A DNA stretch of 64,000 nucleotides from a virus: IMG/VR virus record IMGVR_UViG_3300020220_003261, one strand, 5' to 3'. The translations under genes and the position numbers were made by a program. The notes beneath the pieces were generated by a model. The model had not been told where the DNA came from, made no database searches, and worked only from the letters and a program-made list of their open reading frames with translations. Shown piece after piece: positions 30,798 to 62,840 of this stretch (within the stretch, counting starts at the first letter, position 1; every line of letters begins with the position of its first letter).

Positions 30798-31784
30798 ATG
30801 GCAATTAAGAAAAATAGTTTTGACGCGATAAAGAAAAAGTTCTCTAAAGAAGCTGAATATAAACCAGATAGATTTTTGGATTTGGGTGATGCATTTTTAG
30901 ATGCAACGGGTATACCTGGTCCAGCAATAGGACATATCAATATGTTATTAGGACATAGTGACACCGGAAAAACAACAGCTTTAGTTAAAGCAGCCGTAGA
31001 TGCACAAAAGAAAGGTATTATTCCTGTTTATATTATTACAGAACAAAAATGGAATTGGGATCATGCGGTTTTAATGGGTTTTGATAAAGATTCAGACTAT
31101 CTTTTTAATAGTGATTTTGAATATATTGAACAAATTACAGATTATATTAATCAAGTATTAGATGCACAAGATAAAGGAGAAATAGATGCCGATCTTTTAT
31201 TTCTTTGGGATTCTGTTGGATCTGTTCCATGTAAAATGACGTGGGAAGGTAAAGGTGGTAAACAACATAATGCATCTGTGTTATCTGATAAAATCGGAAT
31301 GGGAATCAACCAACGTATCTCAGGATCAAGAAGAGCAGATAAAAAACATACCAATACTTTGATTATTGTTAACCAACCATGGGTTGAATTACCTGATAAT
31401 CCATTTGGACAACCAAAAATCAAAGCCAAGGGTGGAGAGTCAATTTGGTTGAACTCAACTTTAGTTTTCCGTTTCGGAAATGAAAAAAATGCGGGAACAA
31501 CAAAGATAAAGTTGACAAAAAATAAAAGAGAAATCAATATTGCTACAAGAACTAAAATTACCATCATGAAAAATCACGTTAATGGTTTGGGGTTTGCGGA
31601 TGGTAAAATTATGGTCACACCACATGGATTTATGATGGCAAAAGATAATATCGAAGAAAAGGCGTCAAGAGAAATTTACATTAAGGACAACTTGGATTAC
31701 ATCAGTAAATTATTTGGTGAACAAGTTTCAGATATTAGTGAACTAGGATTTAAAACAGAAACCTCATCAGAAGATGATGAATAA
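30798..31784 (+). CDS. recA: RecA/UvsX-like recombinase
   Basis: Walker A GHSDTGKTT, TEQKW, Walker B FLWDSVG, IVNQ, KGGESI, KNHV. Confidence 0.9.
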   Translation: MAIKKNSFDAIKKKFSKEAEYKPDRFLDLGDAFLDATGIPGPAIGHINMLLGHSDTGKTTALVKAAVDAQKKGIIPVYIITEQKWNWDHAVLMGFDKDSDYLFNSDFEYIEQITDYINQVLDAQDKGEIDADLLFLWDSVGSVPCKMTWEGKGGKQHNASVLSDKIGMGINQRISGSRRADKKHTNTLIIVNQPWVELPDNPFGQPKIKAKGGESIWLNSTLVFRFGNEKNAGTTKIKLTKNKREINIATRTKITIMKNHVNGLGFADGKIMVTPHGFMMAKDNIEEKASREIYIKDNLDYISKLFGEQVSDISELGFKTETSSEDDE

Positions 31785-37209: not shown

Positions 37210-37662
37210 ATGGCTACAACATATGGAATAGATTTTCCCTTTAGGGATAGTAAAACAGGACAATATCTTTCTTTAACGAATACTCCCGAAAGAGAGGTTA
37301 GGGCCAATCTCATACATCTACTTTTAACAAAAAAGGGAAGTAGATATTTTTTACCAAATTTTGGAACAAGAATATACGAATACATTTTTGAACAAAATGA
37401 CATAGTTTCTTTTAACTTAATAGAAGATGAAATTAGAGAGGGAGTTAGAAAGTTTATACCGAATTTAGACATAAATTCAATTACCATAAACTCAGCGGAA
37501 TTGGATCCTGAACAAGATAGAACATTTTCTCAAGAGGAAGATGAAAGATTATTTAGAGTTTCAGATTTTTCAAATAAACCATATACCGCAAAAGTTAGAA
37601 TAGATTACACAGTAAATAACGCCGCCTTTTCTTCTTCTGATTTTATAATTATTAATATATAA
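37210..37662 (+). CDS. Baseplate wedge subunit (gp25/GPW-like)
   Basis: GIDFPF, NLIHLLLTKKGSRYFLPNFGTRIYEYIFE; TATTTAT at 37198-37204. Confidence 0.9.
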   Translation: MATTYGIDFPFRDSKTGQYLSLTNTPEREVRANLIHLLLTKKGSRYFLPNFGTRIYEYIFEQNDIVSFNLIEDEIREGVRKFIPNLDINSITINSAELDPEQDRTFSQEEDERLFRVSDFSNKPYTAKVRIDYTVNNAAFSSSDFIIINI

Positions 37663-37663
37663 A

Positions 37664-39496
37664 ATGGCAAAAAAAATATCATACGCAGTAAGGGACTTCG
37701 CAGGATTAAGACAAGAATTGGTTAATATGACCAAAGAATATTATCCTGATTTAGTAAAAAATACAAATGACGCATCAATTTTTTCAGTATTGTTGGATTT
37801 AAACGCCGCTGTAACTGATAATCTACATTTTCATATTGATAGAGTTTGGCAAGAAACAACACTAGATTTCGCACAACAAAGACAATCATTGTTTCATATT
37901 GCAAAAACATATGGTATGAAAATTCCTGGTAATAGACCATCAGTATCTTTAAGTGATTTTTCAATAAATGTTCCTGTCTCGGGAGATAAGGAAGATGTTA
38001 GATATTTAGGAGTGTTAAAGGCTGGTGCACAAGTATCAGGTGGAGGACAAGTTTTTGAAACAATTGAAGATATTGATTTTTCAAGTCCATTTAATTCAAA
38101 AGGAGAAGTAAACAGATTAAAAATTCCAAATTTTGACGCAAACGATAGATTAATATCATATACTATTACCAAGAGAGAAGCGGTTGTGAATGGGGTTACA
38201 AGAATATTCAGAAGAGTTATTACTGAAATTGATCAAAAACCATTTTTAAAACTTTATTTACCTGAAACGAATATTTTAGGAATAGTCTCAGTCATTCATA
38301 AAGATGGAACTACTTTTGCGGGTAATCCAACTTCCACTGAATTTAATACAAGCTCGAATAAATGGTATGAAGTTAAATCGTTAATAGAAGATAAAGTTTT
38401 TGTTCCAGATTCAACATCAGCATCAGATAGAGATAATTTTAAATCCGGTAATTACGTTAGAGTTACTAATAAATTTATAACAGAATACACACCTGAAAGT
38501 TTTTTTTCATTGACATTTGGATCAGGAAACATTGACCCAATGAGTAATTTAGATGATTTTATGTCAGGAGATTTAAAAGTTAATTTGTCAACTTATTTAA
38601 ATAATATATCATTAGGTAGTTTACCTAAACCTAACACAACAATTTTTGTAAAATATAGAATCGGTGGTGGTAAAAATTCTAATTTAGGTGTTGATGTAAT
38701 AACAAGTATTGATGATATTGAATTCGAAGTAAATGGACCACTATCAAATGTTAATACACAAGTTGTCAATTCTTTAACAGTAAGAAATGTTACACCGGCA
38801 ATTGGAGGTTCTGATCAACCTACAATAGAGGAGATTAGAAATATGATCGCATACAACTTTGCAGCACAAAACAGAGCGGTAACATTAAATGATTATAAAT
38901 CATTAATTGAAACAATGCCGTCAACTTATGGTGCACCAGCTAAAGTAAATGTATTGGAGGAAGATAATAAAATTAAAATTAAATTATTGTCTTATGACGA
39001 TAAAGGTAATTTAACTGATGTAGTATCAAATACTTTGAAAAACAATATTTTAAATTATCTTTCAGAATTTAGAATGATAAATGATTATATTGAAATACAA
39101 AGTGGTGAAGTAATTGATTTAAGTTTAGAAATTGATTTAATTATAGATAAAAATGAATCAAGATCTGATGTAATTAGAGAGACAATAAACAAAACATCAC
39201 AATTTTTTGCAATAGAAAAAAGAAAAATGGGTGATCCTTTGTTTGTTGGTGATCTATCGAGAGAAATTGGTAATGTCGGTGGAGTAACAAATGTTGTAGA
39301 AATAAGAGTTTTTAATAAAATAGGTGGCGAATATTCATCATCACAAGTTACCCAACAATATAAAAATCCTGTGACAAAAGAAATTTTACAATCTGACATG
39401 ACTATTTTTATGAAAGCAAACCAAATTTATCAAATTAGGTTTCCTAATGTAGATATTAAGGTTAGGGTTAGATCCTTAGGTTCAACTACATTTTAA
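37664..39496 (+). CDS. Baseplate wedge subunit (gp6/baseplate J-like)
   Basis: RDF..LR..L, AQQRQSL..IA...G, FG.G, YRIGGG...N, AQNRAVT..DY. Confidence 0.9.
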   Translation: MAKKISYAVRDFAGLRQELVNMTKEYYPDLVKNTNDASIFSVLLDLNAAVTDNLHFHIDRVWQETTLDFAQQRQSLFHIAKTYGMKIPGNRPSVSLSDFSINVPVSGDKEDVRYLGVLKAGAQVSGGGQVFETIEDIDFSSPFNSKGEVNRLKIPNFDANDRLISYTITKREAVVNGVTRIFRRVITEIDQKPFLKLYLPETNILGIVSVIHKDGTTFAGNPTSTEFNTSSNKWYEVKSLIEDKVFVPDSTSASDRDNFKSGNYVRVTNKFITEYTPESFFSLTFGSGNIDPMSNLDDFMSGDLKVNLSTYLNNISLGSLPKPNTTIFVKYRIGGGKNSNLGVDVITSIDDIEFEVNGPLSNVNTQVVNSLTVRNVTPAIGGSDQPTIEEIRNMIAYNFAAQNRAVTLNDYKSLIETMPSTYGAPAKVNVLEEDNKIKIKLLSYDDKGNLTDVVSNTLKNNILNYLSEFRMINDYIEIQSGEVIDLSLEIDLIIDKNESRSDVIRETINKTSQFFAIEKRKMGDPLFVGDLSREIGNVGGVTNVVEIRVFNKIGGEYSSSQVTQQYKNPVTKEILQSDMTIFMKANQIYQIRFPNVDIKVRVRSLGSTTF

Positions 39497-43384: not shown

Positions 43385-45156
43385 TGGAAAAGAGAGAAAT
43401 ATTATTACCAAGTAAATTATTTAAAAAGGCAAATGATGCGGATTTAAATATAAGAGTTGGATTAGATGAATCTGAAGCGTTATTAAGGAATGGCGATAGA
43501 GACATTGTGCTAGATCTTGCAGAATTATTTAATAAAGAAAGACAAGATAGTAAAAATTATAAGATACATGGAAAAATAAAAATGGTTTTTAGAAACATGT
43601 ATAGTGGATCAACAACGTACCCGTATTTAGAAGAACGATTATATTTAAATGGTGACGGTAGTAATAATAATTTTGATGGATTTTTACCTTATAATGAATT
43701 TGCTTTTTTGAGAAATGATGTTGTAAGGGAAGTAACCTTACCGACATCCGTTAGTGGGTCTACTTTAGGAATATACACCCCAACTAGAATTATAACTGGA
43801 TCAACTGGTCACACAACAATAACAACAGCATCGGCACCATATCATAATTGGAACATTTATCTTTCTTATGCATACACTGGAATAACAAATTATCCCATGG
43901 TATATACATTATCGGGTTCACCAAAAACTGAATTTAGTAATATTGTTCATTTTACAAGTGGTGACGGAATACCATTTAGGTGTCAACAATCTGATAGATA
44001 TTATATTTTTACAAGCCCTGTTAAGCACGGAATGTCTGCTGGAGAGTTTATATCATTTTCAGGAACGTCTATTACCGGAAATGTTTCGGGAAGAACATAC
44101 ACAATTAATAGTGTCGGTAACGAAACATTTGATTCTGAAAATTATGTAATTAATATTTTGAAATCACAATTCAAAACGGGAACAACAATTAGTGGAATTT
44201 ACTTAGGTAAAAGGTGTTTAGATAAAAGAAATATCAGTGGTACCACTTCACAATATTATGTTCATAAATTAAAAACACTTAGAGAAACTAAAGATTATAT
44301 TTTAGATAAGATTGGGTTTGAAAGCCCAATATGGGAGGACGAAAAAAAATTATTGTTTGAAAATAGTGCCGGTACTAATGATGTATTAGTTGTAAGAAAT
44401 AGAATGGAATCTTTGATATATGATTTTAAAGAACCATTTGTTCTTTCTGGAATAACTAATAATTTAGGATTTACTCCTACCGATGTATATGTTTCAATTT
44501 TATTTAGGAATGGAAATGGTTATTTTATTAATCCACCAAAAGTTGGTTTCAAATTTAATCTTCATGATACGTGGATAGATGAACACTTTTCAGGAAATAC
44601 CTCGAATGAGTTATCAATGAGCGGTGTTACTATTTTTAGTGGTGCAACTGCAGGGTTTTCTTTTTCTGGTGGAACATCACTACAAACAGGAACAACACTT
44701 GTCGGGTCGTTTGTTGAATATAACAGAAAAGAATTAAAGGAGAGAATAATATCGGAATCAATACATAAAATTATTAATCCATTATCAATATTTGATTATG
44801 AACAAAATAATTCTTCAGTTTTTTCTGGTTCAACAACGGATAATCCGTTTGGTTTGATATATCAACCACATTATAGAGTCAAATTAAGAGAATTATCTCC
44901 ATATACTGAATTTTCAAATACAAACGAAATTTATAATTTACCTGAAAATACAAAATATGATAGTGAAGATAATGTGTGGAGATGGAGAGATCTTTATGAT
45001 CATGGTAATATTGATCCTGATGGATTTGGAACAGATTTTTCTTTTATTAATAATATTCACTACGTAAAAAGAGATATAAATTTCTATTTAAGAAATGAAG
45101 CATATTATATGAATAAGTTAGATGGCTTAGCCAAATTTAAATCTCCTAAATGTTAA
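43384..45156 (+). CDS. Putative virion structural protein
   Basis: TAATG-coupled, Ser/Thr/Gly-rich, within the baseplate operon. Confidence 0.55.
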   Translation: MEKREILLPSKLFKKANDADLNIRVGLDESEALLRNGDRDIVLDLAELFNKERQDSKNYKIHGKIKMVFRNMYSGSTTYPYLEERLYLNGDGSNNNFDGFLPYNEFAFLRNDVVREVTLPTSVSGSTLGIYTPTRIITGSTGHTTITTASAPYHNWNIYLSYAYTGITNYPMVYTLSGSPKTEFSNIVHFTSGDGIPFRCQQSDRYYIFTSPVKHGMSAGEFISFSGTSITGNVSGRTYTINSVGNETFDSENYVINILKSQFKTGTTISGIYLGKRCLDKRNISGTTSQYYVHKLKTLRETKDYILDKIGFESPIWEDEKKLLFENSAGTNDVLVVRNRMESLIYDFKEPFVLSGITNNLGFTPTDVYVSILFRNGNGYFINPPKVGFKFNLHDTWIDEHFSGNTSNELSMSGVTIFSGATAGFSFSGGTSLQTGTTLVGSFVEYNRKELKERIISESIHKIINPLSIFDYEQNNSSVFSGSTTDNPFGLIYQPHYRVKLRELSPYTEFSNTNEIYNLPENTKYDSEDNVWRWRDLYDHGNIDPDGFGTDFSFINNIHYVKRDINFYLRNEAYYMNKLDGLAKFKSPKC

Positions 45157-47619
45157 ATGAAAATAAGAAGAAGTTCTGAAGATTTAAATTTTATTTTTAA
45201 TGGTGATACTTCATTCAAAGCAGACGCTGGATGGGAAGAAAATTTAAGAGACTTTGAAAAAGAAACTCTTACTTCAATTATTAATCCAGCTGAAAACTAT
45301 GAAACGGTAAGATATATTCATAAGGAATATAATTGTGGTAGTGGTATAACACAAAATGACATTTGGTTTTATTTTTATTTTTTAGATAACACAAATAATT
45401 ACACAAATGGATTAGACTATAGTTTAGTAGATATAACACCTAAAGAAAATGCACAAATGTTGGCGCAATCTACAAATAGTTTCTTTAGGTTAGAATTTTA
45501 TAAAACACCAAACAATACTCCACCTGATAGATCTAATAGAAAACTTGCTTTTGCTAAAAATCTTTCATTACCAAACGGTGAAAAATATTTTTATACAACT
45601 TTAAATGATTACATATTTGTTCCTGTATTCACTGGATCTAATTATAGAAACTCTGAAAACATGTATTTGTATTGGTTTCAGGATGATTCCGTTTTAGGTG
45701 ACACAACATTATCTGGTAACACATTTTGGATGACTGCTAGATTTTTTAATGCTAAAGATGGATCAATATCTAATTTTCATAATAGAGTATTAACACCAAA
45801 CCACGAATTTATTGAAGAAGAAGATTTTTATTATAGAGTAACATTTGATAAAAGTTTACACACTTATGAAATATGTTCATATAGTGGTAATACTTTATTT
45901 GGTCCATGTAATACTAATGATGTTAGAGGTAAAGTTTGTAACTCAGTCAATTTTTATCAAAGTTACACACCATCAACAACTACAATTCCACAAACAACGA
46001 GGACGCCCACACCAACAATTAGTGTAACCGCAACCCAAACAATTACACCAACACCAACTAGAACACCAACAAAAACGGCAACACAGACTCCTACACCAAC
46101 TCCAACAAGAACACCATTTTCTACCTTGACACCAACACCTTCAATTACTGCCTCTCCAACTACAACACCTACACCTACTCAAACATTAACGTCAACACCT
46201 ACGCCAACTCCAACTCCAACACCTACTCAAACATTAACACAAACAGTTACACCAACGCAAACACTTACACAGAGTGTAACGGCAACTTCTACGCCAACAC
46301 CAACACCTACGCAAACTGAAACAGCAACGCTAACTCCAACTCCAACACCAACGCAAACATTAACACAGAGTGTAACGGCAACTTCTACGCCAACTCCAAC
46401 ACCAACGCAAACACTTACACAGAGTGTAACGGCAACTTCTACGCCAACTCCAACACCTACGCAAACTGAAACACCTACACAAACACTTACACAGAGTGTA
46501 ACAGCAACGCCAACGCAAACTCCAACACCTACGCAAACTGAAACAGCAACGCTAACTCCAACTCCAACACCAACGCAAACACTTACACAGAGTGTAACGG
46601 CAACTTCTACGCCAACTCCAACACCTACGCAAACACTTACACAGAGTGTAACGGCAACTCCTACGCCAACTCCAACGCAAACACTTACACAGAGTGTAAC
46701 AGCAACGCCAACACCAACTCCAACACCTACTCAAACATTAACTCAAACAGTTACATCTACACCTACACCTACGCCAACGCAAACACTTACACAGAGTGTA
46801 ACAGCAACTTCTACGCCAACCCCAACGCCAACGCAAACATTAACACAGAGTGTAACGGCAACTTCTACGCCAACTCCAACGCAAACACTTACACAGAGTG
46901 TAACGTCAACTTCTACGCCAACCCCAACACCAACGCAAACATTAACTCAAACAGTTACATCTACACCTACACCTACACCAACGCAAACACTTACACAGAG
47001 TGTAACGGCAACTTCTACGCCAACACCAACACCTACGCAAACTGAAACACCAACGCAAACATTAACACAGAGTGTAACGGCAACTTCTACGCCAACTCCA
47101 ACGCCAACGCAAACATTAACACAGAGTGTAACGGCAACTTCTACGCCAACACCAACACCAACAAGAACTGTTACACCAACAAGAACTAATACGCCTACAC
47201 CAACACCAACAATAACTCCTACACCAACAAGAACTAATACGCCCACACCAACACCAACGCAAACATTAACTCCAACACAACCATGTAATTGTAAGTATCA
47301 TGACATATATGTAAATCAAAATGATATTGATGATTCTGATAATCAGGCAGTATACTTTGAATATTATGATTGTATAACTGGATTGCTTGAAACACAGACA
47401 AGAGGTGCAGCAGGAACGATTGAAGATGCATTCTGTCATAACATAAATGCGGGTAATACATCTGTATATTATATAAAGGACGGCAATAATGTGGCAGCTC
47501 AAAGTACCATAACAAATACATTTGTTGATTGTTGTCCCGGTTATTTTGATTGCGGATACGGATGTCAATATTATGAGGAAAATCCGGGATGTTCACCTTG
47601 TGATCCTTCTAGTCTCTAA
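45157..47619 (+). CDS. Putative virion protein with a long Thr-Pro linker and Cys-rich C-terminal module
   Basis: ~275-aa globular N-terminus, ~430-aa TP-rich repeat, ~110-aa tip with 10 Cys. Confidence 0.7.
45995..47283 (+). repeat. Coding tandem repeat, unit ~[18 protein letters not shown] (~54 nt)
   Basis: The core acacagagtgtaac occurs 13 times between 46261 and 47130, with variable numbers of TP dipeptides between copies. Confidence 0.95.
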
Positions 47620-47630
47620 AAATTAATATA

Positions 47631-48767
47631 ATGAAAAATAAATATGAAATATTAAAAAAAACTATTACAAGTGGTTCACTTATATCTGAAATCAGTCAAA
47701 ATTGGTATGATTCTTTCGGTCAAGTAATTCCTTGGTCTGGTAGTGTTTATATTGGACCTAATCAAAACGATATAATATATAACACAAATGTTACAGGATC
47801 TTTAATTGAAGGATATTATAAATGGACTGGAACAACATGGAATTTAATAACATCGGGTTCAGCATACGATAACTACAACATACCAATATTTTTGACTGCG
47901 ACAAATGATGAAATGGGTGTTATGGTTGGTTTTGATGGAGATATCGAACAAGTAGAACAACTTGTAAATTTTTCATATTCAGGTGTTACAGGAACTTCTA
48001 CCGTTACGATTTATAATACAGTTAACACAGATAGATTAAGAACAATAACAGAGGCGACATATACAATAAATTGGGGGGATAATTCAACAGCTAATTTATC
48101 GATATCACCAACAGGACCTTTATCATCAGAAACAAAAACCTATATTAATTCTGGTGAATATAAAATTTCTGTTACCATGAGCACACCATGGACAACCAAT
48201 AAAGTTGAAAAAATTATTAAGATTCCATTTGACGCAACAGTTACAAATCATTTAGGAACATTTACAGGAACAACTGTACCAGCGTATTCTAATATGACTG
48301 GACAAAGCTTAAATTATTTAAATGACTATGATTACACAAATGTCACAGGAACAACAACAGGGTTCACTTATTTAGCAATAGGTAACAGCAGTTTGTCTCA
48401 AAAATTAAAATATGGTCAAAATCCTAATTTGATAATATCTTACAGTGGAGTTACAACTGGAACAGATACTATAGGAAACTATACAGGATATACGATTGGT
48501 GATTTATATTATAAAGATTATCCCAATAAATATACTATGATTACAGGGACTACTGTGGGAATTACAAAAGAAGAGGTTTTTAACCGTGTCTTAACAAGAA
48601 ATGAACATTTTTTAGGTTTTGTTGATGAACCTGTAATTTTTTCAGATGTTTTTGTGGAAAGAGGAAAACAATCTGTAATGGAAAAGAATCTAAGATTAAT
48701 TGAAATAGATAGTATGGGAGAACTTAGTATATATGGAAATGGATTTTATAATATCAGAAAACAATAA
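47631..48767 (+). CDS. Putative virion protein with a PKD/Ig-like domain
   Basis: YTINWGDNS...Y...GEYKISVT PKD-like pattern; rich in TGxT. Confidence 0.55.
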   Translation: MKNKYEILKKTITSGSLISEISQNWYDSFGQVIPWSGSVYIGPNQNDIIYNTNVTGSLIEGYYKWTGTTWNLITSGSAYDNYNIPIFLTATNDEMGVMVGFDGDIEQVEQLVNFSYSGVTGTSTVTIYNTVNTDRLRTITEATYTINWGDNSTANLSISPTGPLSSETKTYINSGEYKISVTMSTPWTTNKVEKIIKIPFDATVTNHLGTFTGTTVPAYSNMTGQSLNYLNDYDYTNVTGTTTGFTYLAIGNSSLSQKLKYGQNPNLIISYSGVTTGTDTIGNYTGYTIGDLYYKDYPNKYTMITGTTVGITKEEVFNRVLTRNEHFLGFVDEPVIFSDVFVERGKQSVMEKNLRLIEIDSMGELSIYGNGFYNIRKQ

Positions 48768-48791
48768 AAATTATATTTATTAATAAAAGTT

Positions 48792-49712
48792 ATGGCAGTT
48801 GGAAGTTATGGTATAGTTAGACCGGCGGACGTTTCTCCAAATGACGTTGAGATTCTCTTACATTACGTTTCAGGTAGAACTGCAAATTCTCCTGTTACCT
48901 TAACAAAATTAGACGCAGGAGACATCTTAAGTCCAATTATACACAATGAAGATACCACAGATGACACTACTCAACAAAACATAGAGATCATTGGTGGTCT
49001 ATATAATTTGAAATTAGAATCATCTAATTTTTCGGAGTTGGGTATATATACTGTTCACATCAGACCAAAACAAATTAGAACAACTATAACGGATTGTGGA
49101 ATATTGGCATCTTTACCATCAGTAAGGGGTGTTATAATTGATTTAACAAATGTTCCATCTGAAGATAGGAATAAATTTACACCACAAGGTTTAGTGGGGT
49201 ATAGAATAGAATATATAAATAAAACAACAAAACAAAAAATACCTAATTTCTATAGAATAGTAACATCTAGCTTTTATTGTGTCCCAATCCAATCGAATTT
49301 AACAAATTCAATACAAAGAGCAATTAGATATCAATATTCAGATACCGCAAGTAACTTAATGTTTTTAACCGTAACACCATCATCCGCACCAACAAATAGA
49401 CCAAATACAGTTCCATTTATAGGAGAACCTTCACAAAAAATTATTTTAACTAATACTTTTTTCAACCCAACAACTATTGAAATAGAAATGGTCGAACATG
49501 ATTCTTCAACATTGGCACACGCTCTTTACGGTAATCAAAGTAAGGCAATATCTTCTGGTATCTACACAATTTATGACAATAACAACAATATCTACAAACA
49601 ATACAATCTTTACGAAATCAAAGATGAACTTAACGAAACATTATATGAGATACGTGAAGAAAAAACAGATATTGATGAAACATTAAATTTAGAAGATATT
49701 ACTAACGTATAA
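48792..49712 (+). CDS. Putative baseplate structural protein
   Basis: 306-aa ORF with TATTTAT at 48774-48780, TAATG-coupled to the next gene. Confidence 0.55.
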
Positions 49713-52700
49713 TGGCAAAGAGAAAAGTTCCAAGTCAGGCGGCTAGTGGTGAAGAAACATTTAGTGATAGTTTAGTCGGTAGACAAATTACCGATGGATC
49801 AAGCTCTTTGACTAATACTGTCTTTAGTATTGATAGAACATTACCAGAAAAAGATAGTAAAAAATTTCAAACATCGCCATTCTCGGATTTTTTTTCTTTA
49901 AATGATTTGAAAGAAGAAAAAGATACACCATCATTGTTATCCGCTGAAGAAAAGAAAAAAAATATAAAATTCAGAAATGGTAAAGATGATGCCTCTAGAT
50001 CTTTGTATGGGTCATTAAGAAGTAGAATTGGAAATTCAATACAAAAAATTATAAAAAAATTTCCGGCCGGTGTTTTAGTAGACGCGACAACACCTGTAAG
50101 AACAAGTAACAATACAGCAAAAAATATAACTTACAGTCCAATATTGAAATCAACACAACTTGAAATTGATGTTTCAATGTTGTATAACACGTTTGGAATT
50201 GTTTTTAAAAAACCATCATCACCTGAAAAGGTAAATAAAGAAAATCCATTAAGAGATTTTTTTTCTTCTTATACAAAATATGTAATTGAAATAAGTGGAT
50301 CAACATATAATTTGGTTGGATACACAGAACCAAATTCATCAAATACTATTACTTTAAATGTATCTGGACAACCATTTACAGGATCAACATATTCTGAATC
50401 TTTTTTGATAAGACCAAACAATGGTACAATTGAAGAGTTTCATAATGGTCTTGATGATTTAGAAGAATTATTATTAGATAGACAAAGTAATCCAAAATAC
50501 GAAGCAAAGTTTAAAGTCCCAAAAGATAGTTTTGACGGATCCTCAACTGATATTGTAACAGTAGAAATTAACTGGCCAATTTCAAAAGATAATTGGAATC
50601 CACAAATTGTAGGATTAGACTACGAAGAATATCTAACAAAAATAAATTCTTTAGCAGAAGAAATTGACAATTATAAATCTAATTTAATATTAAGATTTTT
50701 AACTTCAGGTCAGTTATTTGAATATGATACTTTAGAAAAAAAAGGTGAAACAATTTTTCAATTGTATGGTCAATCTTTTGATAAAGTAAAAAAATATATT
50801 GATAACATTGCTTTAATGAGAAATGTTACATATGACGGAATAAATAATTTACCAGATATTTTACTAAAAAATCTTGCAAACACTTTAGGTTTAGATACAG
50901 TCAATCTATTTGATGAAAATAATTTAGAACAATCATTATATACAAGACACCAATCTAATTATTCTGGTATTACTACATCTTTTAATGTTGTTGATGCCGA
51001 ATATGAATTTTATAGAAGATTACTTGTTAACCTTGCCTTTATCTATAAATCAAAGGGGACAAGAACAGCAATAGAATTTTTCTTAAAATTTTTAGGGGCA
51101 CCCGAACCATTAATTAAAATTGATGAATATGTTTATAAAGTAAAAACATTACCGAAAAGTAATGATATAGAAGATGACATTTATGATGCAATACAAGGTA
51201 ATAAAATATCTTTTGTTGTTACAGGATTTACAGGAACAACATATTCGTATTTAACAGGAACAACAAGATCTTCTATAACTTATAATAGAGACAACTATCC
51301 AGTAGATGAAGATAGTGGATTACCAAAATCAACAACTAACACATCTGAAGATACATTCTTTCAGAAAGGTGCTGGTTGGTATGATGTGACATTATCTCAC
51401 AGAGCACAAATGGTTTTAGATGAGGAAAATTCAATAACTACTGGTAGATCAAGGACTACTGTAACTAAAATTAAACCTTATACTTACGGAGAAGATTATT
51501 TTGACTTGTATAGAACATTGCCAGGATTAGATACAGGATATGAATTATTAGGAAATATTGATAATTTTAAAGGGTCCGTAGATAATACAGAATCTTTATT
51601 CACACTAAACAGAAAAAATTTAAGTGTATATCTATCTTCAGCACAATCATTAGATTACGATATATACAGAAAATCAAGAGAATTAGAAGTTGTTATTGGT
51701 TTATTACCAATACAAACGGGTTTTACATTTAGTGAATTCTTAGATAGTGTTTATAATCAAGTAATTCATAATTCCAATGTCATTAGATTTAAACCTAATT
51801 ACATTCAATTAGAAGATTTATATTCAAAATATTTGTCATTGACAGGTGTAACTCATTATGATTACTTACTAACAAATGAGTTTATAGAAAAAATGTCACC
51901 GTATTGGGTTCAGATATTGGAACAAATGGTACCGGCAACTACGTTGTGGACTGGTGGTAATTTAATTGAAAATGGAAGAATAAAAAGATCAAAATACAAA
52001 TACACAAAACCGTGTCAAGTATTGGAAATTATTGATGATTTATATCCCGATTTTGTGCAACTTATAGGAGATGAACAAAATGATGGTGAAGTTGGTATAG
52101 GTGATGATGACCCCGATAAAGATGGTGTATTAAGAATATATCCAGCTTTTGAAATTAACGGTGTTTTATATTCAGGTGAGACAAACAATTTAAATCATTT
52201 TGTTCAAATTTTAGGAACATCAACAGTTTCAGGAGTTAGTGCAAGGTTATATAACCCTTCACCACCTTATGTTGTTGATCCCGATTATTCAGAAATTAGA
52301 ACACAATGGTCGGCAAAAACGATAAATGTTATTAATTATATAAATGCTAACTCAACAATTTTTATTGATTTGAGTGGAACAAGTAGTACGTATACAGGTT
52401 ACACAAGTCAATCTGGAATTACTACAGGAACAACAATGGTTCCTTACTTTACTTACGAGTTTTTCACTAACGACGCCAACCAAGAAAAAATTAAATTTAT
52501 TTCATCTAAATATGGATTTAATAAATGCACTGTGGATAAATTCAATTTCAAATATGTAACAATCGAATATAGTTCACCACCGCCAACACCAACACCTACA
52601 AGAACTCCTACGCCTACACCAACACCAACAAGAACTGTTACACCAACAAGAACTCTTACGCCTACACCAACACCAACAAGAACTGTTACACCAACAAGAT

Positions 52701-53602
52701 CTCTGACACCCACACCTACACCAACTAAAACATTAACATCAACTGTACCTTCAACAGCAACACCAACACCTACGCAAACTGAAACAGCAACACTAAATCC
52801 AACTCCAACACCAACACCTACACCAACAACAACTGATCCTGCAACAACCCCTACACCCACAGCTACACCAACTCCAACACCAACACCTACACCACCAACA
52901 GAGTATTGTATTCAGTATACTATAAATTATGATGTTAGCCAACCTGCATCGTCTTGTGGAACTGGATTATATGATAGTGTGGATGAGATTACAGTAACCT
53001 TGTACGATAGTCCTGGAGGTTCTCCAATTAATGCTACAGAAAATATCACCATACAATTTAGTGGAAGTGAAATGATGGATTGTTCAGGATATCCTTTCAC
53101 TGTATACCCTGTATCTGTTGTAATTAATTCGGGATCATCAAGTGGTTTTTCAACATACACACAAAGTGGTTATAGAATATGTGAACAAGATTCACTTTGT
53201 AAGGCTTTCTCTATAAATGATTTAACAATATATAGTATTACACCTTCTTCATATGAGGTTTGTGTAATTCCGACATTAACTCCTACCCCTACGCCAACTC
53301 CAACACCTACACCGAGTTGTGTGTGTCATAGTATGACATATAATGATGGACAATTGCCGGGTGATTTATATGTAAGATACCGTTCTTGTGGTAGTGGAGT
53401 TGTAACGGAATTGATAAGTGAACTTTTAACAGATGATAATGGAGATGGAACATATACCGCACATATTTGTGTTGATGTGACCGGAAGTTATAATAATCCT
53501 ATTTGTGTTCAAGATGGTAATGAAGTATTATGTCCAAACGGTCTTTCATGGTCATCATCTTTACAAAACTGTAGTAGCCCATTTGATTGTAATGTAAGTT
53601 AA
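49712..53602 (+). CDS. Baseplate wedge protein (gp7/P2 gpI-like) with appended Thr-Pro linkers and two Cys-rich modules
   Basis: [37 protein letters not shown] wedge motif; TP tracts at 52577-52900 and 53270-53314. Confidence 0.7.
52577..52900 (+). repeat. Coding Thr-Pro repeat
   Basis: [13 protein letters not shown].. repeats; shares near-identical DNA with 46295-46352 and 47149-47212. Confidence 0.95.
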
Positions 53603-53628
53603 AAATTAATTCAAAATATTTATAACAT

Positions 53629-55752: not shown

Positions 55753-55790
55753 GCTTTACAATACAACTTATATTATTTATATATTATTAT

Positions 55791-56402
55791 ATGGATCATA
55801 AATTAAAAAATAAGCCTAAAATATTGGGTTTAGATATATCTACAAAAACAATTGGTTGGGCATTATTTGATATAACAGGTTCTAAACTTTTGGAATTGAC
55901 ACACTTTAGTCCAAAGATAAAACCACAACCAGAAGATAAACTAGAGGAACTAATAAAAAAAGCAGATGCTTTTAAAAAACATGTTGATGTTTACAAAGAC
56001 ATGGGAATTGTTAGAGTTATTATTGAGGAACCATTATTAAATTCAAATAATATCTATACTGTTGGAACACTTTTAAGATATAATACAATGGTTTGTAAAT
56101 GTATTTATGATACATTAGGTATTGTTCCAACTTTTATTTCTACATATAATGCTAGAAAATTTGCATTTCCAAGCTTAGTGGGACCAAATGATAAAGGAAG
56201 AAATGTTTTATTTGGTGGTTATCCAAAAGATATCGATAAAAAACAAGTCATATGGGATCATGTTAATTCTGTTTGTCCAGAGGTAAAATGGTTATACGGA
56301 AATAAAGGGGGGTTGAAAAAAGAAAATTTTGATATGGCTGATGCAGCATGTGCCGTTATAGGATACATCAACATGATTAAATTAGAAAAAACCGGCAACT
56401 AA
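55791..56402 (+). CDS. RuvC-like Holliday junction resolvase
   Basis: ILGLDISTKTIGWA, IIEEP, FDMADA acidic tetrad. Confidence 0.85.
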   Translation: MDHKLKNKPKILGLDISTKTIGWALFDITGSKLLELTHFSPKIKPQPEDKLEELIKKADAFKKHVDVYKDMGIVRVIIEEPLLNSNNIYTVGTLLRYNTMVCKCIYDTLGIVPTFISTYNARKFAFPSLVGPNDKGRNVLFGGYPKDIDKKQVIWDHVNSVCPEVKWLYGNKGGLKKENFDMADAACAVIGYINMIKLEKTGN

Positions 56403-57477: not shown

Positions 57478-58358
57478 TGAATTTAAAAGATATTTCTAAA
57501 GAAATTAATGAACTATTAGAACAAAGAAGAAAAGAACTTGATATATCATTTGTTGAAGAAGAACACATTTATTATATGAGAGATACTGAAGGTGTGTTAA
57601 GAAAAACATTTCCTTCAGTATCTAAACTTGTAAAAAAGTTTCATAAATCATTTGATGCCGAAGGAAAGTCTCTTGAAATGTCTAACGGTGATCCCATTGC
57701 TGCCGCTGAACTTCAGGAACAATGGAAAAAAGCTGGAAGTTATGCTACTAATTTAGGAAGTAGAGTTCACTACAAATTAGAAATAGAGGCACTTGCGAGA
57801 AATGGTAACTATAAAGATGTTAGACAACCAATATTTGAATGTGATCAAACACAGATGGATAAAAGTGAAAAAATGATACTTGCTGGATTAAATTTTTTAA
57901 AATTAATGGAAGAAAGAGGTGCTATCTTGTTAGATACCGAAATAATTCTTGGTGATAATGAATTAGGTTATACCGGTCAACCAGATAAATGTTGGTTAAT
58001 GTTAAACAAAGAAAAAAATGATATCGGTTTAGTTATTACAGATTGGAAAACAAACCAACCAAAAAATTTCGAGGTTCATCATTACACTGGTAAAATGTAT
58101 TCACCATTTCAAGAATATCGTGATACATCTTTAAGTCATTATTATTTACAACTACCTTTTTACGGAAGATTATTGATGAAAATGTTGAAAGGGACTAAAT
58201 ACGAAAACTTGAAATTACTAGGTTGTGTTGTTGTTCTATTGAAAGATGACGGTTCTTTTCAGGAATATAAAGTCCCATCAGATGTAATATACAGAGTAAT
58301 GGAATTAGATTTATCAAAATATATTAATTATGGTAAAAAAACTTATACATATCGCTGA
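57477..58358 (+). CDS. PD-(D/E)XK exonuclease (RecB/Cas4-like fold)
   Basis: LGSRVH, TGQPD, ITDWKT, YYLQL.FY. Confidence 0.85.
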   Translation: MNLKDISKEINELLEQRRKELDISFVEEEHIYYMRDTEGVLRKTFPSVSKLVKKFHKSFDAEGKSLEMSNGDPIAAAELQEQWKKAGSYATNLGSRVHYKLEIEALARNGNYKDVRQPIFECDQTQMDKSEKMILAGLNFLKLMEERGAILLDTEIILGDNELGYTGQPDKCWLMLNKEKNDIGLVITDWKTNQPKNFEVHHYTGKMYSPFQEYRDTSLSHYYLQLPFYGRLLMKMLKGTKYENLKLLGCVVVLLKDDGSFQEYKVPSDVIYRVMELDLSKYINYGKKTYTYR

Positions 58359-59136
58359 TATTCATATCAGAACATTTCAGTTACATGATTTATATAGAAA
58401 TCAATTTGAAATCCTTATTCAAAATTTAAAAAAAGAAACAAAAGAATACAATTATGAAGAAATAAGAGTTGTAATTGTCGGAGATATTGCGCATCAAAAA
58501 ATTAATATATCCAATGAACAAATGATGTTAACATCTTGGTTCATAACACAAATTATAGTTCACATTGGAAAAGTTGTTATAATACCAGGCAATCATGATT
58601 TTTTGGAAAACAATACTCAAAGAATAGATAGTATTACACCAATCGTTGAATTATTAAATCGTGAAGAAATACAATATTATAAAGATAGTGGTGTATATGA
58701 AGATGAAAATATAAATTGGGTAGTGTATTCTTTATATCAACATAATCAAAGACCAGATTTCAAAAAAGAAGAGGATAAATTATACGTTGGTTTATTTCAC
58801 GGAGTAATTCAGGGGATGTCAACTGATATCGGATTTCAATTTGAAGATGGTTATAATAAATTAAATTTTGTTGATTTAGATTTGCTATTATGTGGGGATA
58901 TTCACAAAAGACAACAATTTGAACTACCAAATGGAGGTAAAGGGGTTATGGTAGGATCATTAATTCAACAAAATTTTGGTGAAACGGTAAAACATCATGG
59001 ATATGGTATTTACAATATTGAAACTGACGAATATAAATTTCATGATTTAGAAAACTTGCAACCTTTTCTACATTTTTCAATTAATGATATTACAGATATA
59101 GAAAATGAAAAAGAAAAACTACTTAATGTTGGATGA
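58330..59136 (+). CDS. sbcD: Mre11/SbcD/gp47-like metallophosphoesterase nuclease (short, 268 aa)
   Basis: HIADIH, VGDIAH, PGNHD, LFHG, GDIHK, GSLIQQNFGE. Confidence 0.9.
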   Translation: MVKKLIHIADIHIRTFQLHDLYRNQFEILIQNLKKETKEYNYEEIRVVIVGDIAHQKINISNEQMMLTSWFITQIIVHIGKVVIIPGNHDFLENNTQRIDSITPIVELLNREEIQYYKDSGVYEDENINWVVYSLYQHNQRPDFKKEEDKLYVGLFHGVIQGMSTDIGFQFEDGYNKLNFVDLDLLLCGDIHKRQQFELPNGGKGVMVGSLIQQNFGETVKHHGYGIYNIETDEYKFHDLENLQPFLHFSINDITDIENEKEKLLNVG

Positions 59137-59596
59137 TGAATTTATTTTATATTGTCAATTAAATAAAATTGATGATGTAGAAAAATTGGCAAAAGAAACT
59201 TTTGATAGAGGATTTTCGTTGTTAAAATATCCTGAAACACCTATTGGGGTCAGGAATGAAAAAATAATAGAAAAGGAAATAATAAAAGAAATTCCTATTG
59301 AAAAAATTGTAGAAGTAGAAAAAATAATTTATAAAGATAAAATAGTTGAAATACCAGTAGAAGTTGTAAAAGAAGTTCCTATTGAAGTTAAGGGTAAAAC
59401 AAAAGTAATAACTAAAGAAATTGTAAAAGAAGTTCCTGTTGAAAAAATTATAATTGATACCGAAGAAGTTGATAAGTTAAAAAAGATAAATAAAGAACTT
59501 ACCGAAGAATTAGAAAATATAAAATCATCACTTAATAAATTTAATAAGGGTAAGTTTCTTAAGAACAGTGATCTTGGTAGTTTATATTCAGAATAA
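59105..59596 (+). CDS. Hypothetical protein with EKIVEV/KEVP repeats
   Basis: KEIPIEKIVEVEKIIYKDKIVEIPVEVVKEVPIEV..KEIVKEVPVEKII followed by a coiled coil. Confidence 0.65.
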   Translation: MKKKNYLMLDDEFILYCQLNKIDDVEKLAKETFDRGFSLLKYPETPIGVRNEKIIEKEIIKEIPIEKIVEVEKIIYKDKIVEIPVEVVKEVPIEVKGKTKVITKEIVKEVPVEKIIIDTEEVDKLKKINKELTEELENIKSSLNKFNKGKFLKNSDLGSLYSE

Positions 59597-59658
59597 GTAT
59601 CGGCAATACTCTTTTTTTTGTCCCATATTTTGTTTATTATTTATTAAAATATTTTAAT

Positions 59659-59970
59659 ATGAACATATTATTTCTGTGGATTTTTATGGCATATGGAATG
59701 ACATCTGTAATTGTTTGGGGTTCCATATTTGAAAAACAAAGAGAATGGGTAAAAAATAACTCTAAATTTTTTGGTGATCTTATTAGTTGCACATTATGTA
59801 CAGCAACATGGGTTGGTTTTTTTATCTCATTAATTTTAGGAGGACTTTCAGAATCTTTATTAGGTGTTAATTGGATTTTATCTATTTTTTTTGATGGAAT
59901 GTTTACCGCTGGTTCAGTTTGGGCTTTAAATGCAATAATCGAGTTCTTTGAAGAGAGTAGATTAAAATAA
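59659..59970 (+). CDS. Small membrane protein with CxxC (DUF1360-like)
   Basis: Three hydrophobic stretches; GDLISCTLCTATWVG. Confidence 0.65.
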   Translation: MNILFLWIFMAYGMTSVIVWGSIFEKQREWVKNNSKFFGDLISCTLCTATWVGFFISLILGGLSESLLGVNWILSIFFDGMFTAGSVWALNAIIEFFEESRLK

Positions 59971-59974
59971 AATT

Positions 59975-60508
59975 ATGCCATTTTTAAAAAACACAAGTTT
60001 TGATGACACACTTGTTAGAAAAGCCGTTATAAAATTTTTTGAAGAAAATTTTAATACGTTACTAAAAGAAACACCGCAAGAAATGAAATTAATTGACTTG
60101 ACAGGTGTAACTGAAACCAAATTAGGAGTCGAAGTCGAAAGAGGAGGTTGGACAAATTGTTTTTGGAATAACGAAAAATATTCTTTAATATCTAAACTCG
60201 GATTTAAAACCATAAACATTCCAATGAGAAAACAAAAATATTGGCTTGACGAATATTATTATTATGGTAAATTAAAAATAAATCCATCTTCAAAAGACAA
60301 TATATTTGTTAGAACAAATAAAGATTTTACACAAATTATTGTAATTAGACCCGAAACAATCAGAAATGATAAAAAAGTAATTCAAACCGAATTTAAACCA
60401 AACAATAGTGATGAATTTGAAGAGTGGTTATGTTTTAGAAGAGAACATGTCGAAACTTATAATTTAATTGATAATGTTTGGTTTTTAGATGAAAATTATG
60501 AAATATAA
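59975..60508 (+). CDS. Hypothetical protein, possible PD-(D/E)XK-type nuclease
   Basis: IDL......LGVEVE motif; otherwise unrecognised. Confidence 0.45.
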   Translation: MPFLKNTSFDDTLVRKAVIKFFEENFNTLLKETPQEMKLIDLTGVTETKLGVEVERGGWTNCFWNNEKYSLISKLGFKTINIPMRKQKYWLDEYYYYGKLKINPSSKDNIFVRTNKDFTQIIVIRPETIRNDKKVIQTEFKPNNSDEFEEWLCFRREHVETYNLIDNVWFLDENYEI

Positions 60509-62840
60509 TAATCCGTTTATTAAAGTTACTTGGGAAGACAACCCTGAAAATTTTACATCTGAAAAAATTAAAAGAGTAAAGGCGTATTTTCAAGACAAGT
60601 ATAAAACTAAAAATATACAAGTCATTACAAAAAGTCTTGCCAATAATACAGATATTAAATTAGATTCTTTAGAGGCTTCCGATAGTATACTTGATCATCA
60701 TTACCAAAAAAAATTGATGAAAGATTTTATCAACGAAAATGATATTAGAACTAAGTGGGATTTAGTAGACAGGTTGGATAATAAAGTTAATATTCAATTT
60801 GATAAGATTAATCAAAATAAAATTCGTTATAACAAGTGGTATATAAAGAAAGTTGAGTTTTCTAATTTTTTATCTTTCGGAGATAATAATATAATCAATT
60901 TTATAGATTTAGAGGGTATAACAGTAATAGAATCAATCCCTAAAAACTTTGGTGGTAAATCAACATGCTCTGTGGACCTTCTTATGTTTTTATTTTTCAA
61001 TACAACAACTAAAACAAAAACTGCCATAGAAATATTCAATAAGTTTACTGATAAGGATGAAGTTGTTGTTAAAGGTGATATTACAATAGATGGTGACGAT
61101 TATGTTATAGAAAGAAAGTTATCGAGAAAAAAAACAAAATATGGTGAATATAATGTAACAAACAGGTTAGAGTTCTATAGAAAAAATGAAGATGGAACAA
61201 TTCAAAATTTGACTGGTGAACAAAGAAGAGTTACAGAGACTTTTATATCTTCTGCAATTGGATCAGAAGAAGATTTCTTGACAACTATTATGACAACAGG
61301 AAATAATTTAGAACAATTAATAGAATCCAAACCAACAGCAAGAGGACAAATTTTAGTAAAATTTTTGGGTTTAGAAAATTTAAAAACAAAAGAAGAAATT
61401 GCAAAAGAAATTTATAATGATTGGAGTAAAAATTTGGTTTCAAATACACATAATGTTACACAGCTTGAAATTGATAATGTAAAATTTAAAGACAGTATCA
61501 TAAATTCACAGAACGAAATTGAAAGAATAGAAAGAGATTTAACTAACTTTGAAAATGAACTTAAAAAATTAGAAATAAAAAAAGATAATTTATTGTCTTC
61601 AAAAAATAATGATGTAGATCAAGATCTAATAAAAACAAATCCTACTTTATTAAAAAAAGAAATAGATGAGTTAATTAAACAAAGAGACTTATCAAAAACA
61701 AATGCCGAAAATATAGATGTTAAGGAACCGTCATTATATTACAATGAAGATGATCATGGTAAACTTAAAGAAAAATTGGGTGAATTTTATTCAATTGAGG
61801 TTGCAATAAAATATGAAAGGACAGAAAAGGAAAAGAATTTAAAGCAATTAGAAGAAGGGACTATATGTCCAACGTGTAAAAGATCACTTGAAGATGTAGA
61901 CCATACTGACGAAATTGAAAAAATAAAAAAAGAAATAAAGATTATTGAAAAAGACATTTCCAATAACAAAAAAGAATTTGATAAGATAAAAAATAAATCA
62001 GATAAATTAGAATTATTAAAAATAGAGTTGGAAAATTATGAAAAAAATAAATTAAAGAAGGCAAGGTATGAATTAGAAGTCGATCAAAAACAACTTGAAA
62101 TTGACTCGAAACAAATTAAAATAGACAAATACGAAGACAATAAAAAAAAGTTAGTGGAAAATCAAAAAATAGATGGGGAAATTATTGCGGTTAGAACTAA
62201 AATAGAAACGACTAATGCCAACATCAAACAATCAACCAAGGTAATTGAAAATTACAATTCGAGTATTCTTTTGATGAAACAAAAGGTTGAAATTAACAAT
62301 GAACTAATTAAAAAGATTAGATCTGAAGAAGAACTTAGTTCTATATTCAAAGTTTATCTCACAATTTTTGGTAAGAATGGTATATCTAAGATCATAATGA
62401 AAAATATGATACCATTACTTAACCATGAATTATATAGACTTTTAGTGGATAGTTGTCATTTCATTTTAGAACTAAATGTAAATGATAAAAACGAAGTTGA
62501 ATTTGTAATGATTGATACTGAAACAAGAATTATAAAATCGTTAAATTCAGGTTCAGGATACGAAAGAACAATATCTTCATTGGCATTACGTAGTGTATTA
62601 ACCAAAATTTCTTCATTACCAAAACCAAACATAGTAGTTATGGATGAGGTTTTCGGAAAAATAGCAGATGAAAATTTAGACATGGTAGGTGAGTTTTTCA
62701 AAAAAATCAAAGAATATTTTGAACATATTTTAGTAATTTCTCATAATCCACTTATAAGAAATTGGTCAGATAACATTATCATGATTAAAAAAGAGAGTAA
62801 TATTTCTCATATAGATTATATTACCACAAAAATTTCTTAG
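60489..62840 (+). CDS. sbcC: Rad50/SbcC/gp46-like ATPase with an N-terminal extension
   Basis: VEFSNFLSFG, Walker A NFGGKST, zinc hook CPTC, signature SGSGYE, Walker B VMDEVFG, ISH. Confidence 0.93.
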   Translation: MKIMKYNNPFIKVTWEDNPENFTSEKIKRVKAYFQDKYKTKNIQVITKSLANNTDIKLDSLEASDSILDHHYQKKLMKDFINENDIRTKWDLVDRLDNKVNIQFDKINQNKIRYNKWYIKKVEFSNFLSFGDNNIINFIDLEGITVIESIPKNFGGKSTCSVDLLMFLFFNTTTKTKTAIEIFNKFTDKDEVVVKGDITIDGDDYVIERKLSRKKTKYGEYNVTNRLEFYRKNEDGTIQNLTGEQRRVTETFISSAIGSEEDFLTTIMTTGNNLEQLIESKPTARGQILVKFLGLENLKTKEEIAKEIYNDWSKNLVSNTHNVTQLEIDNVKFKDSIINSQNEIERIERDLTNFENELKKLEIKKDNLLSSKNNDVDQDLIKTNPTLLKKEIDELIKQRDLSKTNAENIDVKEPSLYYNEDDHGKLKEKLGEFYSIEVAIKYERTEKEKNLKQLEEGTICPTCKRSLEDVDHTDEIEKIKKEIKIIEKDISNNKKEFDKIKNKSDKLELLKIELENYEKNKLKKARYELEVDQKQLEIDSKQIKIDKYEDNKKKLVENQKIDGEIIAVRTKIETTNANIKQSTKVIENYNSSILLMKQKVEINNELIKKIRSEEELSSIFKVYLTIFGKNGISKIIMKNMIPLLNHELYRLLVDSCHFILELNVNDKNEVEFVMIDTETRIIKSLNSGSGYERTISSLALRSVLTKISSLPKPNIVVMDEVFGKIADENLDMVGEFFKKIKEYFEHILVISHNPLIRNWSDNIIMIKKESNISHIDYITTKIS

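Follow-up and report, generated by a model that had tools for sequence, protein, structure and literature searches.

Genes A and B of the IMG/VR virus record IMGVR_UViG_3300020220_003261 each encode a conserved N-terminal part, a linker rich in threonine and proline (Thr-Pro), and modules containing cysteine (Cys). The source is an uncultured freshwater jumbo myophage, and the window, meaning the whole stretch of 64,000 nucleotides (nt) that was analyzed, is part of its larger genome. Thr-Pro tracts were found in genes A and B only, and patches of their linker DNA were nearly identical. A preliminary description of the window had proposed that such linkers act as in-frame homology cassettes through which tip modules are swapped between different virion proteins. 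The parts of both genes are listed below, with lengths in amino acids (aa).

45157..47619, + strand: gene A, 820 aa, with anchor, Thr-Pro linker, and Cys-rich tip (from the open reading frame (ORF) and its translation)
45157..45966, + strand: anchor domain of A, aa 1-270, ending where most orthologues end
45967..47286, + strand: linker of A, aa 271-710 (440 aa), in which Thr-Pro tracts alternate with units of 12 protein letters, as tandem arrays with periods of 54, 102, 204, and 222 nt
46295..46352, + strand: second shared patch in A, 19 protein letters, 56/58 to B
47142..47275, + strand: B-like patch in the A linker, core 47149-47212 (62/64 to B), in some strains only
47290..47532, + strand: tip domain of A, about 85 aa, a seven-strand beta-sandwich with the pattern CxC...C...C...CC in the AlphaFold2 (AF2) model
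47545..47616, + strand: C-terminal Cys knot of A, an 18-letter protein motif, disordered in the model
49712..53602, + strand: gene B, 1296 aa, with a large conserved N-terminal part, linker, and two Cys modules; 120 IMG/VR relatives at about 50% identity
49712..52567, + strand: conserved N-terminal part of B, aa 1-952, mean column identity 58% in alignment A2
52568..52912, + strand: linker of B, aa 953-1067 (115 aa), containing the patches shared with A (52609-52742 and 52758-52815) as well as a 48-nt tandem array
52913..53260, + strand: module C1 of B, aa 1068-1183, Cys-containing, without relatives among the fetched loci
53261..53326, + strand: second, short Thr-Pro linker of B (22 aa), from the Thr-Pro tract scan
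53327..53599, + strand: module C2 of B, aa 1206-1296, CxC-type; its family also occurs on a different gene in locus L004

The linkers of both genes stood before Cys-containing modules, as the preliminary description had stated. Orthologues of the A anchor were detected in at least 24 genome clusters. Its model was a generic beta-sandwich with a predicted local distance difference test score (pLDDT) of 66, for which Foldseek returned no matches and VIA-align just generic beta-sandwich matches at Z of about 5. The A tip was modeled as an isolated fold with a pLDDT of 82, and of more than 94 over the residues of 47290..47532. It had no PDB match and its model no Foldseek match. A set of 1.84 billion representative proteins contained 23 relatives, most of them single beads of proteins whose modules are joined by Thr-Pro linkers. 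The Cys knot that ends A may form a small domain in its own right. The same motif ends the B orthologue in L081 and lies within the F2-anchored gene of L062/L064. In a form of 17 protein letters, the knot also recurs in the unrelated metagenomic proteins P0010, P0014, P0015, and P0021, where it lies beside poly-Thr rather than Thr-Pro linkers and is not always C-terminal.

Module C2 of B shared 53% identity over 62 aa with module F46 of gene o2 in L004. Similarity between the A tip and C2 was weak only (hhalign E 0.0034, probability 9.5%), and hhalign showed no homology between the A tip and C1. The N-terminal part of B had no Pfam, PHROG, or PDB sequence match. Pfam and PHROG scans of A and B were empty save for a low-complexity match to phrog_15511, and profile searches of both anchors against PDB sequences gave zero matches.

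Linker DNA shared between genes A and B

The two matches reported in the preliminary description were present exactly as it gave them and in the same codon phase. In pair 1, 47149-47212 matched 52616-52679 at 62 of 64 nt, with codon phases of 0/0 relative to the start codons, while in pair 2, 46295-46352 matched 52758-52815 at 56 of 58 nt, with phases of 1/1. Pair 1 extended without gaps to 47142-47275 and 52609-52742 (118/134). The order of the two patches is reversed between A and B, so they represent distinct patches rather than a single collinear block. The identity covered synonymous positions, as had been noted earlier, with same-residue codons identical in 20 of 20 cases in pair 1 and in 16 of 18 in pair 2. 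The genes had also been called otherwise unrelated, and their N-terminal anchors were indeed unrelated at an hhalign probability of 0.2%.

Given the codon usage of the pooled linkers, full agreement of the same-residue codons had a probability of about 10^-6.3 for pair 1 and about 10^-6.0 for pair 2. When codons were redrawn with the peptides fixed (500 runs), the longest match that stayed in phase and had no more than 2 mismatches measured 31.8 +/- 3.4 nt with a maximum of 47, compared to 64 observed. Shuffling the codons of B gave longest matches of 22.5 +/- 2.2 nt, again compared to 64. In a per-genome codon-redraw null, the A/B pair of the window reached z = 12.6, the most extreme value among within-genome pairs. 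Codon bias, which the preliminary description had itself put forward as a possible source of the identity, was ruled out together with chance by the redraw and shuffle nulls. The similarity of linker DNA between A and B is supported as real homology.

Nine contigs from other samples covered this region of the window at 98.5-100% identity, and the 306-aa protein whose gene lies between A and B recurred without change on contigs from several other samples. The end of the A linker was polymorphic between strains. The window and contig L101 carried the B-like patch there, a stretch of 30 protein letters, while L097, L098, and L100 carried an A-native allele reading ...TQTLTRTVTS... between identical flanks. 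In the alignment, the window allele matched the B linker at 63 of 83 positions and the upstream repeats of A at 34. The alternative allele showed the reverse pattern, with 45 of 55 positions matching the repeats of A and 27 matching B. The copy in B itself was present in 4 of 4 assemblies covering the B linker (L097-L100). The simplest reading is a recent non-reciprocal, gene-conversion-like transfer from the B linker to the A linker; a transfer is claimed because the allele is polymorphic among strains, and its direction is the part that we infer. The linker of A was also polymorphic in length, with A comprising 820 aa in the window and 728 aa in L097 (L097:6642-8828), which fits active expansion and contraction of tandem repeats or a collapse at assembly.

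Low-complexity, tandemly repeated sequence of this kind could also mislead, either by convergence through codon bias and slippage or by an assembly chimera between repeats. Short-read contigs do end in the tracts: L102 and L103 stop at window position 52638, inside the patch shared by A and B, and L098, L100, and L101 begin within the A linker. The codon-redraw and shuffle nulls were nevertheless far exceeded, and the patch was found again in the independent contig L101. Some variants in the A copy of the patch do not occur in B, so this copy cannot be a chimera assembled from B reads. Misassembly between repeats, a second source of error named in the preliminary description, is unlikely to have produced the shared patch, and we regard an artefact of either kind as extremely improbable.

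The repeats shared by A and B evidently break assemblies.

Two kinds of known diversifying element were rejected. An invertase shufflon or invertible tail-fiber segment was rejected because the patches repeat in direct orientation on a single strand and because no recombinase of the Gin, Cin, or Min type was present in the PHROG scans. A diversity-generating retroelement was rejected because no reverse transcriptase was matched among the scanned window ORFs of at least 100 aa, and because the mismatches between patches (AA/CT, G/A, and C/A) showed no adenine-specific pattern.

Module exchange and breakpoints across the lineage

Ninety-five loci were fetched for relatives of A and B and, together with the window, formed 37 clusters at 85% nt identity. 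Linker-bearing ORFs were cut at their linkers and the pieces were clustered into module families. A total of 107 module families occurred downstream of linkers, 14 of which sat on at least two different anchors across the 37 clusters, and ten or more anchors carried linker-borne modules. Family F8 was found on five anchors, F9 and F3 on four, and F17, F20, and F24 on both A and B. Parts of the window's own proteins take part in this exchange, as the knot of the A tip ends B in L081 and the C2 family of B sits on another gene in L004.

The preliminary description had asked after different tip modules on orthologous N-termini, and these were abundant, with 25 families of terminal modules on the B anchor and 9 on the A anchor. 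Orthologues of B kept the N-terminal part and varied in their tails, which measured 141-1730 aa and consisted of Thr-Pro linkers with differing modules. Orthologues of A mostly stopped a few residues past residue 270, and about ten clusters ran on into a linker and module. A collection of 5.8 billion proteins held 245 tailed members of the A family. Among the best 120 of these 245, 108 had a Thr-Pro tract from about residue 276, followed by at least 30 module families. Orthologues of the window genes 39551, 43384, and 47631 likewise carried tails of linker plus module in some relatives. In a complete relative of 335.6 kb, the (TP)4 DNA pattern was confined to this locus (nine hits) and one other beaded gene (two hits), all on one strand.

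The same complete genome contained, far from the baseplate locus, a 1114-codon open frame with at least seven small Cys-containing modules on Thr-Pro linkers (L096:4225-7566; G002, about 238-241 kb). Upstream of it lies an open frame of 115 codons that has this linker as well.

Tip replacements in close relatives (94-98% nt identity) had their 5' breakpoint inside the linker. Contigs L072 and L076 were 94-97% identical through the N-terminal part of B and the whole linker, their tips of 96 and 113 aa were unalignable, and identity resumed at 98% from the next gene. Cluster L072 comprised three tip alleles, and in every pairwise comparison that isolated the tip, the left breakpoint lay in the linker of both partners. 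Between L062 and L064, identity was 97.5% up to a point inside the B linker and resumed at 93% within the linker of the following gene; all four breakpoint positions fell in the Thr-Pro DNA of two different genes. Swaps were seen only at a background divergence of 2-6% or greater. Best matches between linkers had a median of 29 nt within and 24 nt between genomes, a length-corrected excess of 6.4 nt (permutation p 0.002); the preliminary description had called for this comparison.

Gene neighborhood and the source of recombination

Genes A and B lie within a co-oriented block directly downstream of gp25-like and gp6-like wedge genes. The window codes for the tail sheath, tube, and hub, and its other genes include DNA polymerase, helicases, a UvsX-like recombinase, an SbcCD-like nuclease, a RuvC-like resolvase, a primase, and a prohead protease. 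Those that bear on the position of A and B or on recombination are the following.

37210..39496, + strand: gp25-like and gp6-like baseplate wedge genes (phrog_261/43 and phrog_219/6), at the head of the gene block containing A and B
30798..31784, + strand: UvsX/RecA-like recombinase (phrog_97), generic, with no specific tie to the linkers
55791..56402, + strand: RuvC-like resolvase (phrog_159), generic
58330..62840, + strand: SbcD-like and SbcC-like nuclease genes (phrog_100 and phrog_77), generic

By their gene position, A and B would be virion proteins, and position and architecture suggest that the tips probably act as adhesins or receptor-binding decorations. The neighboring genes 47631-48767, 48792-49712, and 53629-55752 had no Pfam match (E <= 0.01) and no PHROG match, and no glycosyltransferase was recognized near the linkers. 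Orthologues of the first of these, a 378-aa gene (47631-48767), bear Thr-Pro linkers and modules in L056, L079, and L080. Relatives of A and B were found on IMG/VR contigs of 200-335 kb, while megablast of 43000-56000 and tblastn of the N-terminal part of B against 50,697 GenBank phage records gave zero matches. Isolates were matched by the C-terminus of the sheath alone, at no more than 39% identity, e.g., Microcystis phage Mel-JY01 and Flavobacterium phages. The tail sheath protein (10486-13362) comprises 958 aa, of which known sheath families match just the last 300 or so residues; the N-terminal 650 residues had no PHROG match.

The linkers could be recombination sockets of a dedicated, selected diversification system that is run at high frequency by the phage recombinase and nuclease set. 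This would agree with the restriction of Thr-Pro DNA to few genes and one strand, with the number of anchors (at least ten) and of module families (about 107), with the higher similarity of linkers within genomes, and with the presence of recombination genes. These genes are, however, the standard set of large myophages, and no gene was specifically associated with the linkers. Neither a reverse transcriptase nor an invertase was matched among the scanned window ORFs of at least 100 aa, as the preliminary description had anticipated; its attribution of the exchange to the phage's own RecA/SbcCD machinery was not borne out, as nothing ties this generic set to the linkers. The tips were moreover invariant over nine assemblies of the window phage, and the divergence at which swaps appeared also speaks against a frequent process. 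A dedicated system was thus considered very unlikely.

The pattern is probably explained by general recombination and slippage acting on in-frame, low-complexity linkers, which would make them a passive feature of evolvability rather than a dedicated machine. A and B would each consist of a conserved N-terminal anchor bearing small tip domains, apparently of a disulfide type, on a flexible Thr-Pro linker. The linkers would be low-complexity, in-frame DNA of one common dialect, and this dialect would be the reason for tens of near-identical bases between otherwise unrelated genes. General homologous recombination and replication slippage may work on such DNA, and about 70-130 nt of the B linker would recently have been copied to the end of the A linker in a non-reciprocal, gene-conversion-like event. 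Throughout the lineage, linkers may provide the proximal homology arm, or the junction, for replacing tips and for moving them between anchors. Occasional conversion from linker to linker and replacement of tips at tolerant junctions would be the outcomes. Exchange of tips at linkers is seen in the module pattern and the breakpoints; the enzymology behind it we infer. Of the homology cassettes proposed in the preliminary description, the moved patch, the modules on different genes, and the tip breakpoints in linkers stand, while the idea of a distinct system does not.

The linkers may instead be mere permissive borders, with modules traveling by illegitimate or flanking-homology recombination, selection keeping the in-frame joints, and shared linker DNA arising as a by-product. 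The right-hand breakpoints of cluster L072 would suit this, as they lay outside the linkers, in the conserved gene that follows, and so would the scarcity of within-genome linker pairs with excess DNA identity. It is harder to reconcile with L062 and L064, where all four breakpoints lay in Thr-Pro tracts of two genes, and with the patch in the window, where linker DNA moved between genes without a module, a homology-type event in linker DNA. Permissive borders were on balance judged unlikely.

Internal ends of high-identity segments fell within Thr-Pro tracts +/- 15 nt in 74 of 197 cases at a tract coverage of 8.4%, which supports exchange at linkers. Several observations nevertheless weigh against recombination through linker homology. 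Repeat-number indels and broken assemblies must account for part of the enrichment of segment ends, and breakpoints in linkers would likewise remain if illegitimate recombination were followed by selection for products that are in frame and foldable. Only 8 of 79 within-genome linker pairs beat all 30 codon-redraw simulations (median z 0.15), so linker DNA sharing is sporadic and not kept up everywhere. A clean indel of the A tail at the stop codon separated L005 (1041-1112) from L006 (7321-8127), with forms ending in ...ERDVQ* or continuing as ...ERDVQNGIV plus linker and module. Thr-Pro DNA is missing at this point from the form without a tail, so some tail gains or losses proceed without linker homology, a case that favors permissive borders. 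The tail of B and both tips were invariant across strains of the window phage, and the pairing of N-terminus and tip, on which the preliminary description had staked its proposal, was accordingly fixed within this population and variable among the orthologues of relatives. No Pfam, PHROG, or PDB match backs the virion location or adhesin role of A, B, and the tip. All data are also metagenome assemblies, which are weak in repeats.

A stronger form of the explanation would have Thr-Pro DNA selected as a common in-frame socket. A hundred or more small disulfide-type adhesin domains would then be moved among ten or more baseplate and fiber anchors and appended to tipless proteins, with linker conversion keeping the sockets compatible. 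This extension was considered rather improbable.

Significance and comparison with known systems

The evolution of phage host range is usually credited to swaps between homologous fiber genes. Here, small domains on flexible linkers are the units of exchange, and they pass between structural genes that are not homologous. The phages concerned form an abundant lake lineage without cultured members. The polymorphism among strains provides a rare natural snapshot of linker-to-linker transfer. If linkers act as homology arms, this would account for the gain of tips by proteins whose C-terminus is normally fixed, and it would offer a simple natural template for modular display. As no new enzyme is needed, the conceptual advance is moderate. 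The preliminary description had known of no account of such a system, and word searches of open-access text likewise failed to turn up Thr-Pro or PT linkers described in this role for phage fibers; the concept itself has precedents in Cellulomonas and the T-even phages.

In phages of Streptococcus thermophilus, collagen-like repeats separate the antireceptor domains, including the host-range region VR2 (PMC5601072). As in the window, repetitive linker-coding DNA borders the variable, host-range-determining domains of a receptor-binding protein. The repeat in those phages is a Gly-X-Y collagen repeat within a single gene of a siphophage with a Gram-positive host, unlike the Thr-Pro linkers described here.

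A bacterial precedent is the "region shuffling" at Pro-Thr boxes that Warren and colleagues reportedly described in 1986 for the Cellulomonas fimi cellulases CenA and Cex. There, too, two genes of the same genome that otherwise differ have a conserved Pro-Thr linker in common. It parts independently folding domains, which occur in different arrangements, and the linker was read as a shuffling joint. The same features were found here, with Pro/Thr-rich linkers between independently folding domains (440 aa in A; 115 and 22 aa in B), linker DNA conserved between unrelated genes beyond composition (62/64, 56/58, and 118/134), and the same domains joined to different partners with junctions at the linker (14 families on at least two anchors). 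The cellulases are secreted bacterial enzymes with one short linker each, whereas the present case is a phage baseplate-region locus with at least ten anchors, about 100 module families, and linkers of up to hundreds of residues, and adds population evidence of recent transfer from linker to linker.

Among phages, the distal tail-fiber locus of the T-even group is said, after work by Tetart and colleagues in 1998, to swap adhesin specificity by recombination at conserved motifs, namely the His boxes of gp37 and the glycine-rich motifs of gp38. Homology to gp37 or gp38 was not found, as A and B matched no PHROG or Pfam family other than the low-complexity phrog_15511. Both systems share short conserved in-frame motifs on either side of variable receptor-binding segments, and general recombination crosses over at these motifs within a T4-like recombination background. 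The window differs in that low-complexity Thr-Pro linkers between whole domains take this place, and in that exchange also occurs between non-homologous genes. Exchange at the Thr-Pro linkers is best read as an unusual form of ordinary tail-fiber domain shuffling at conserved motifs and not as a dedicated machine.

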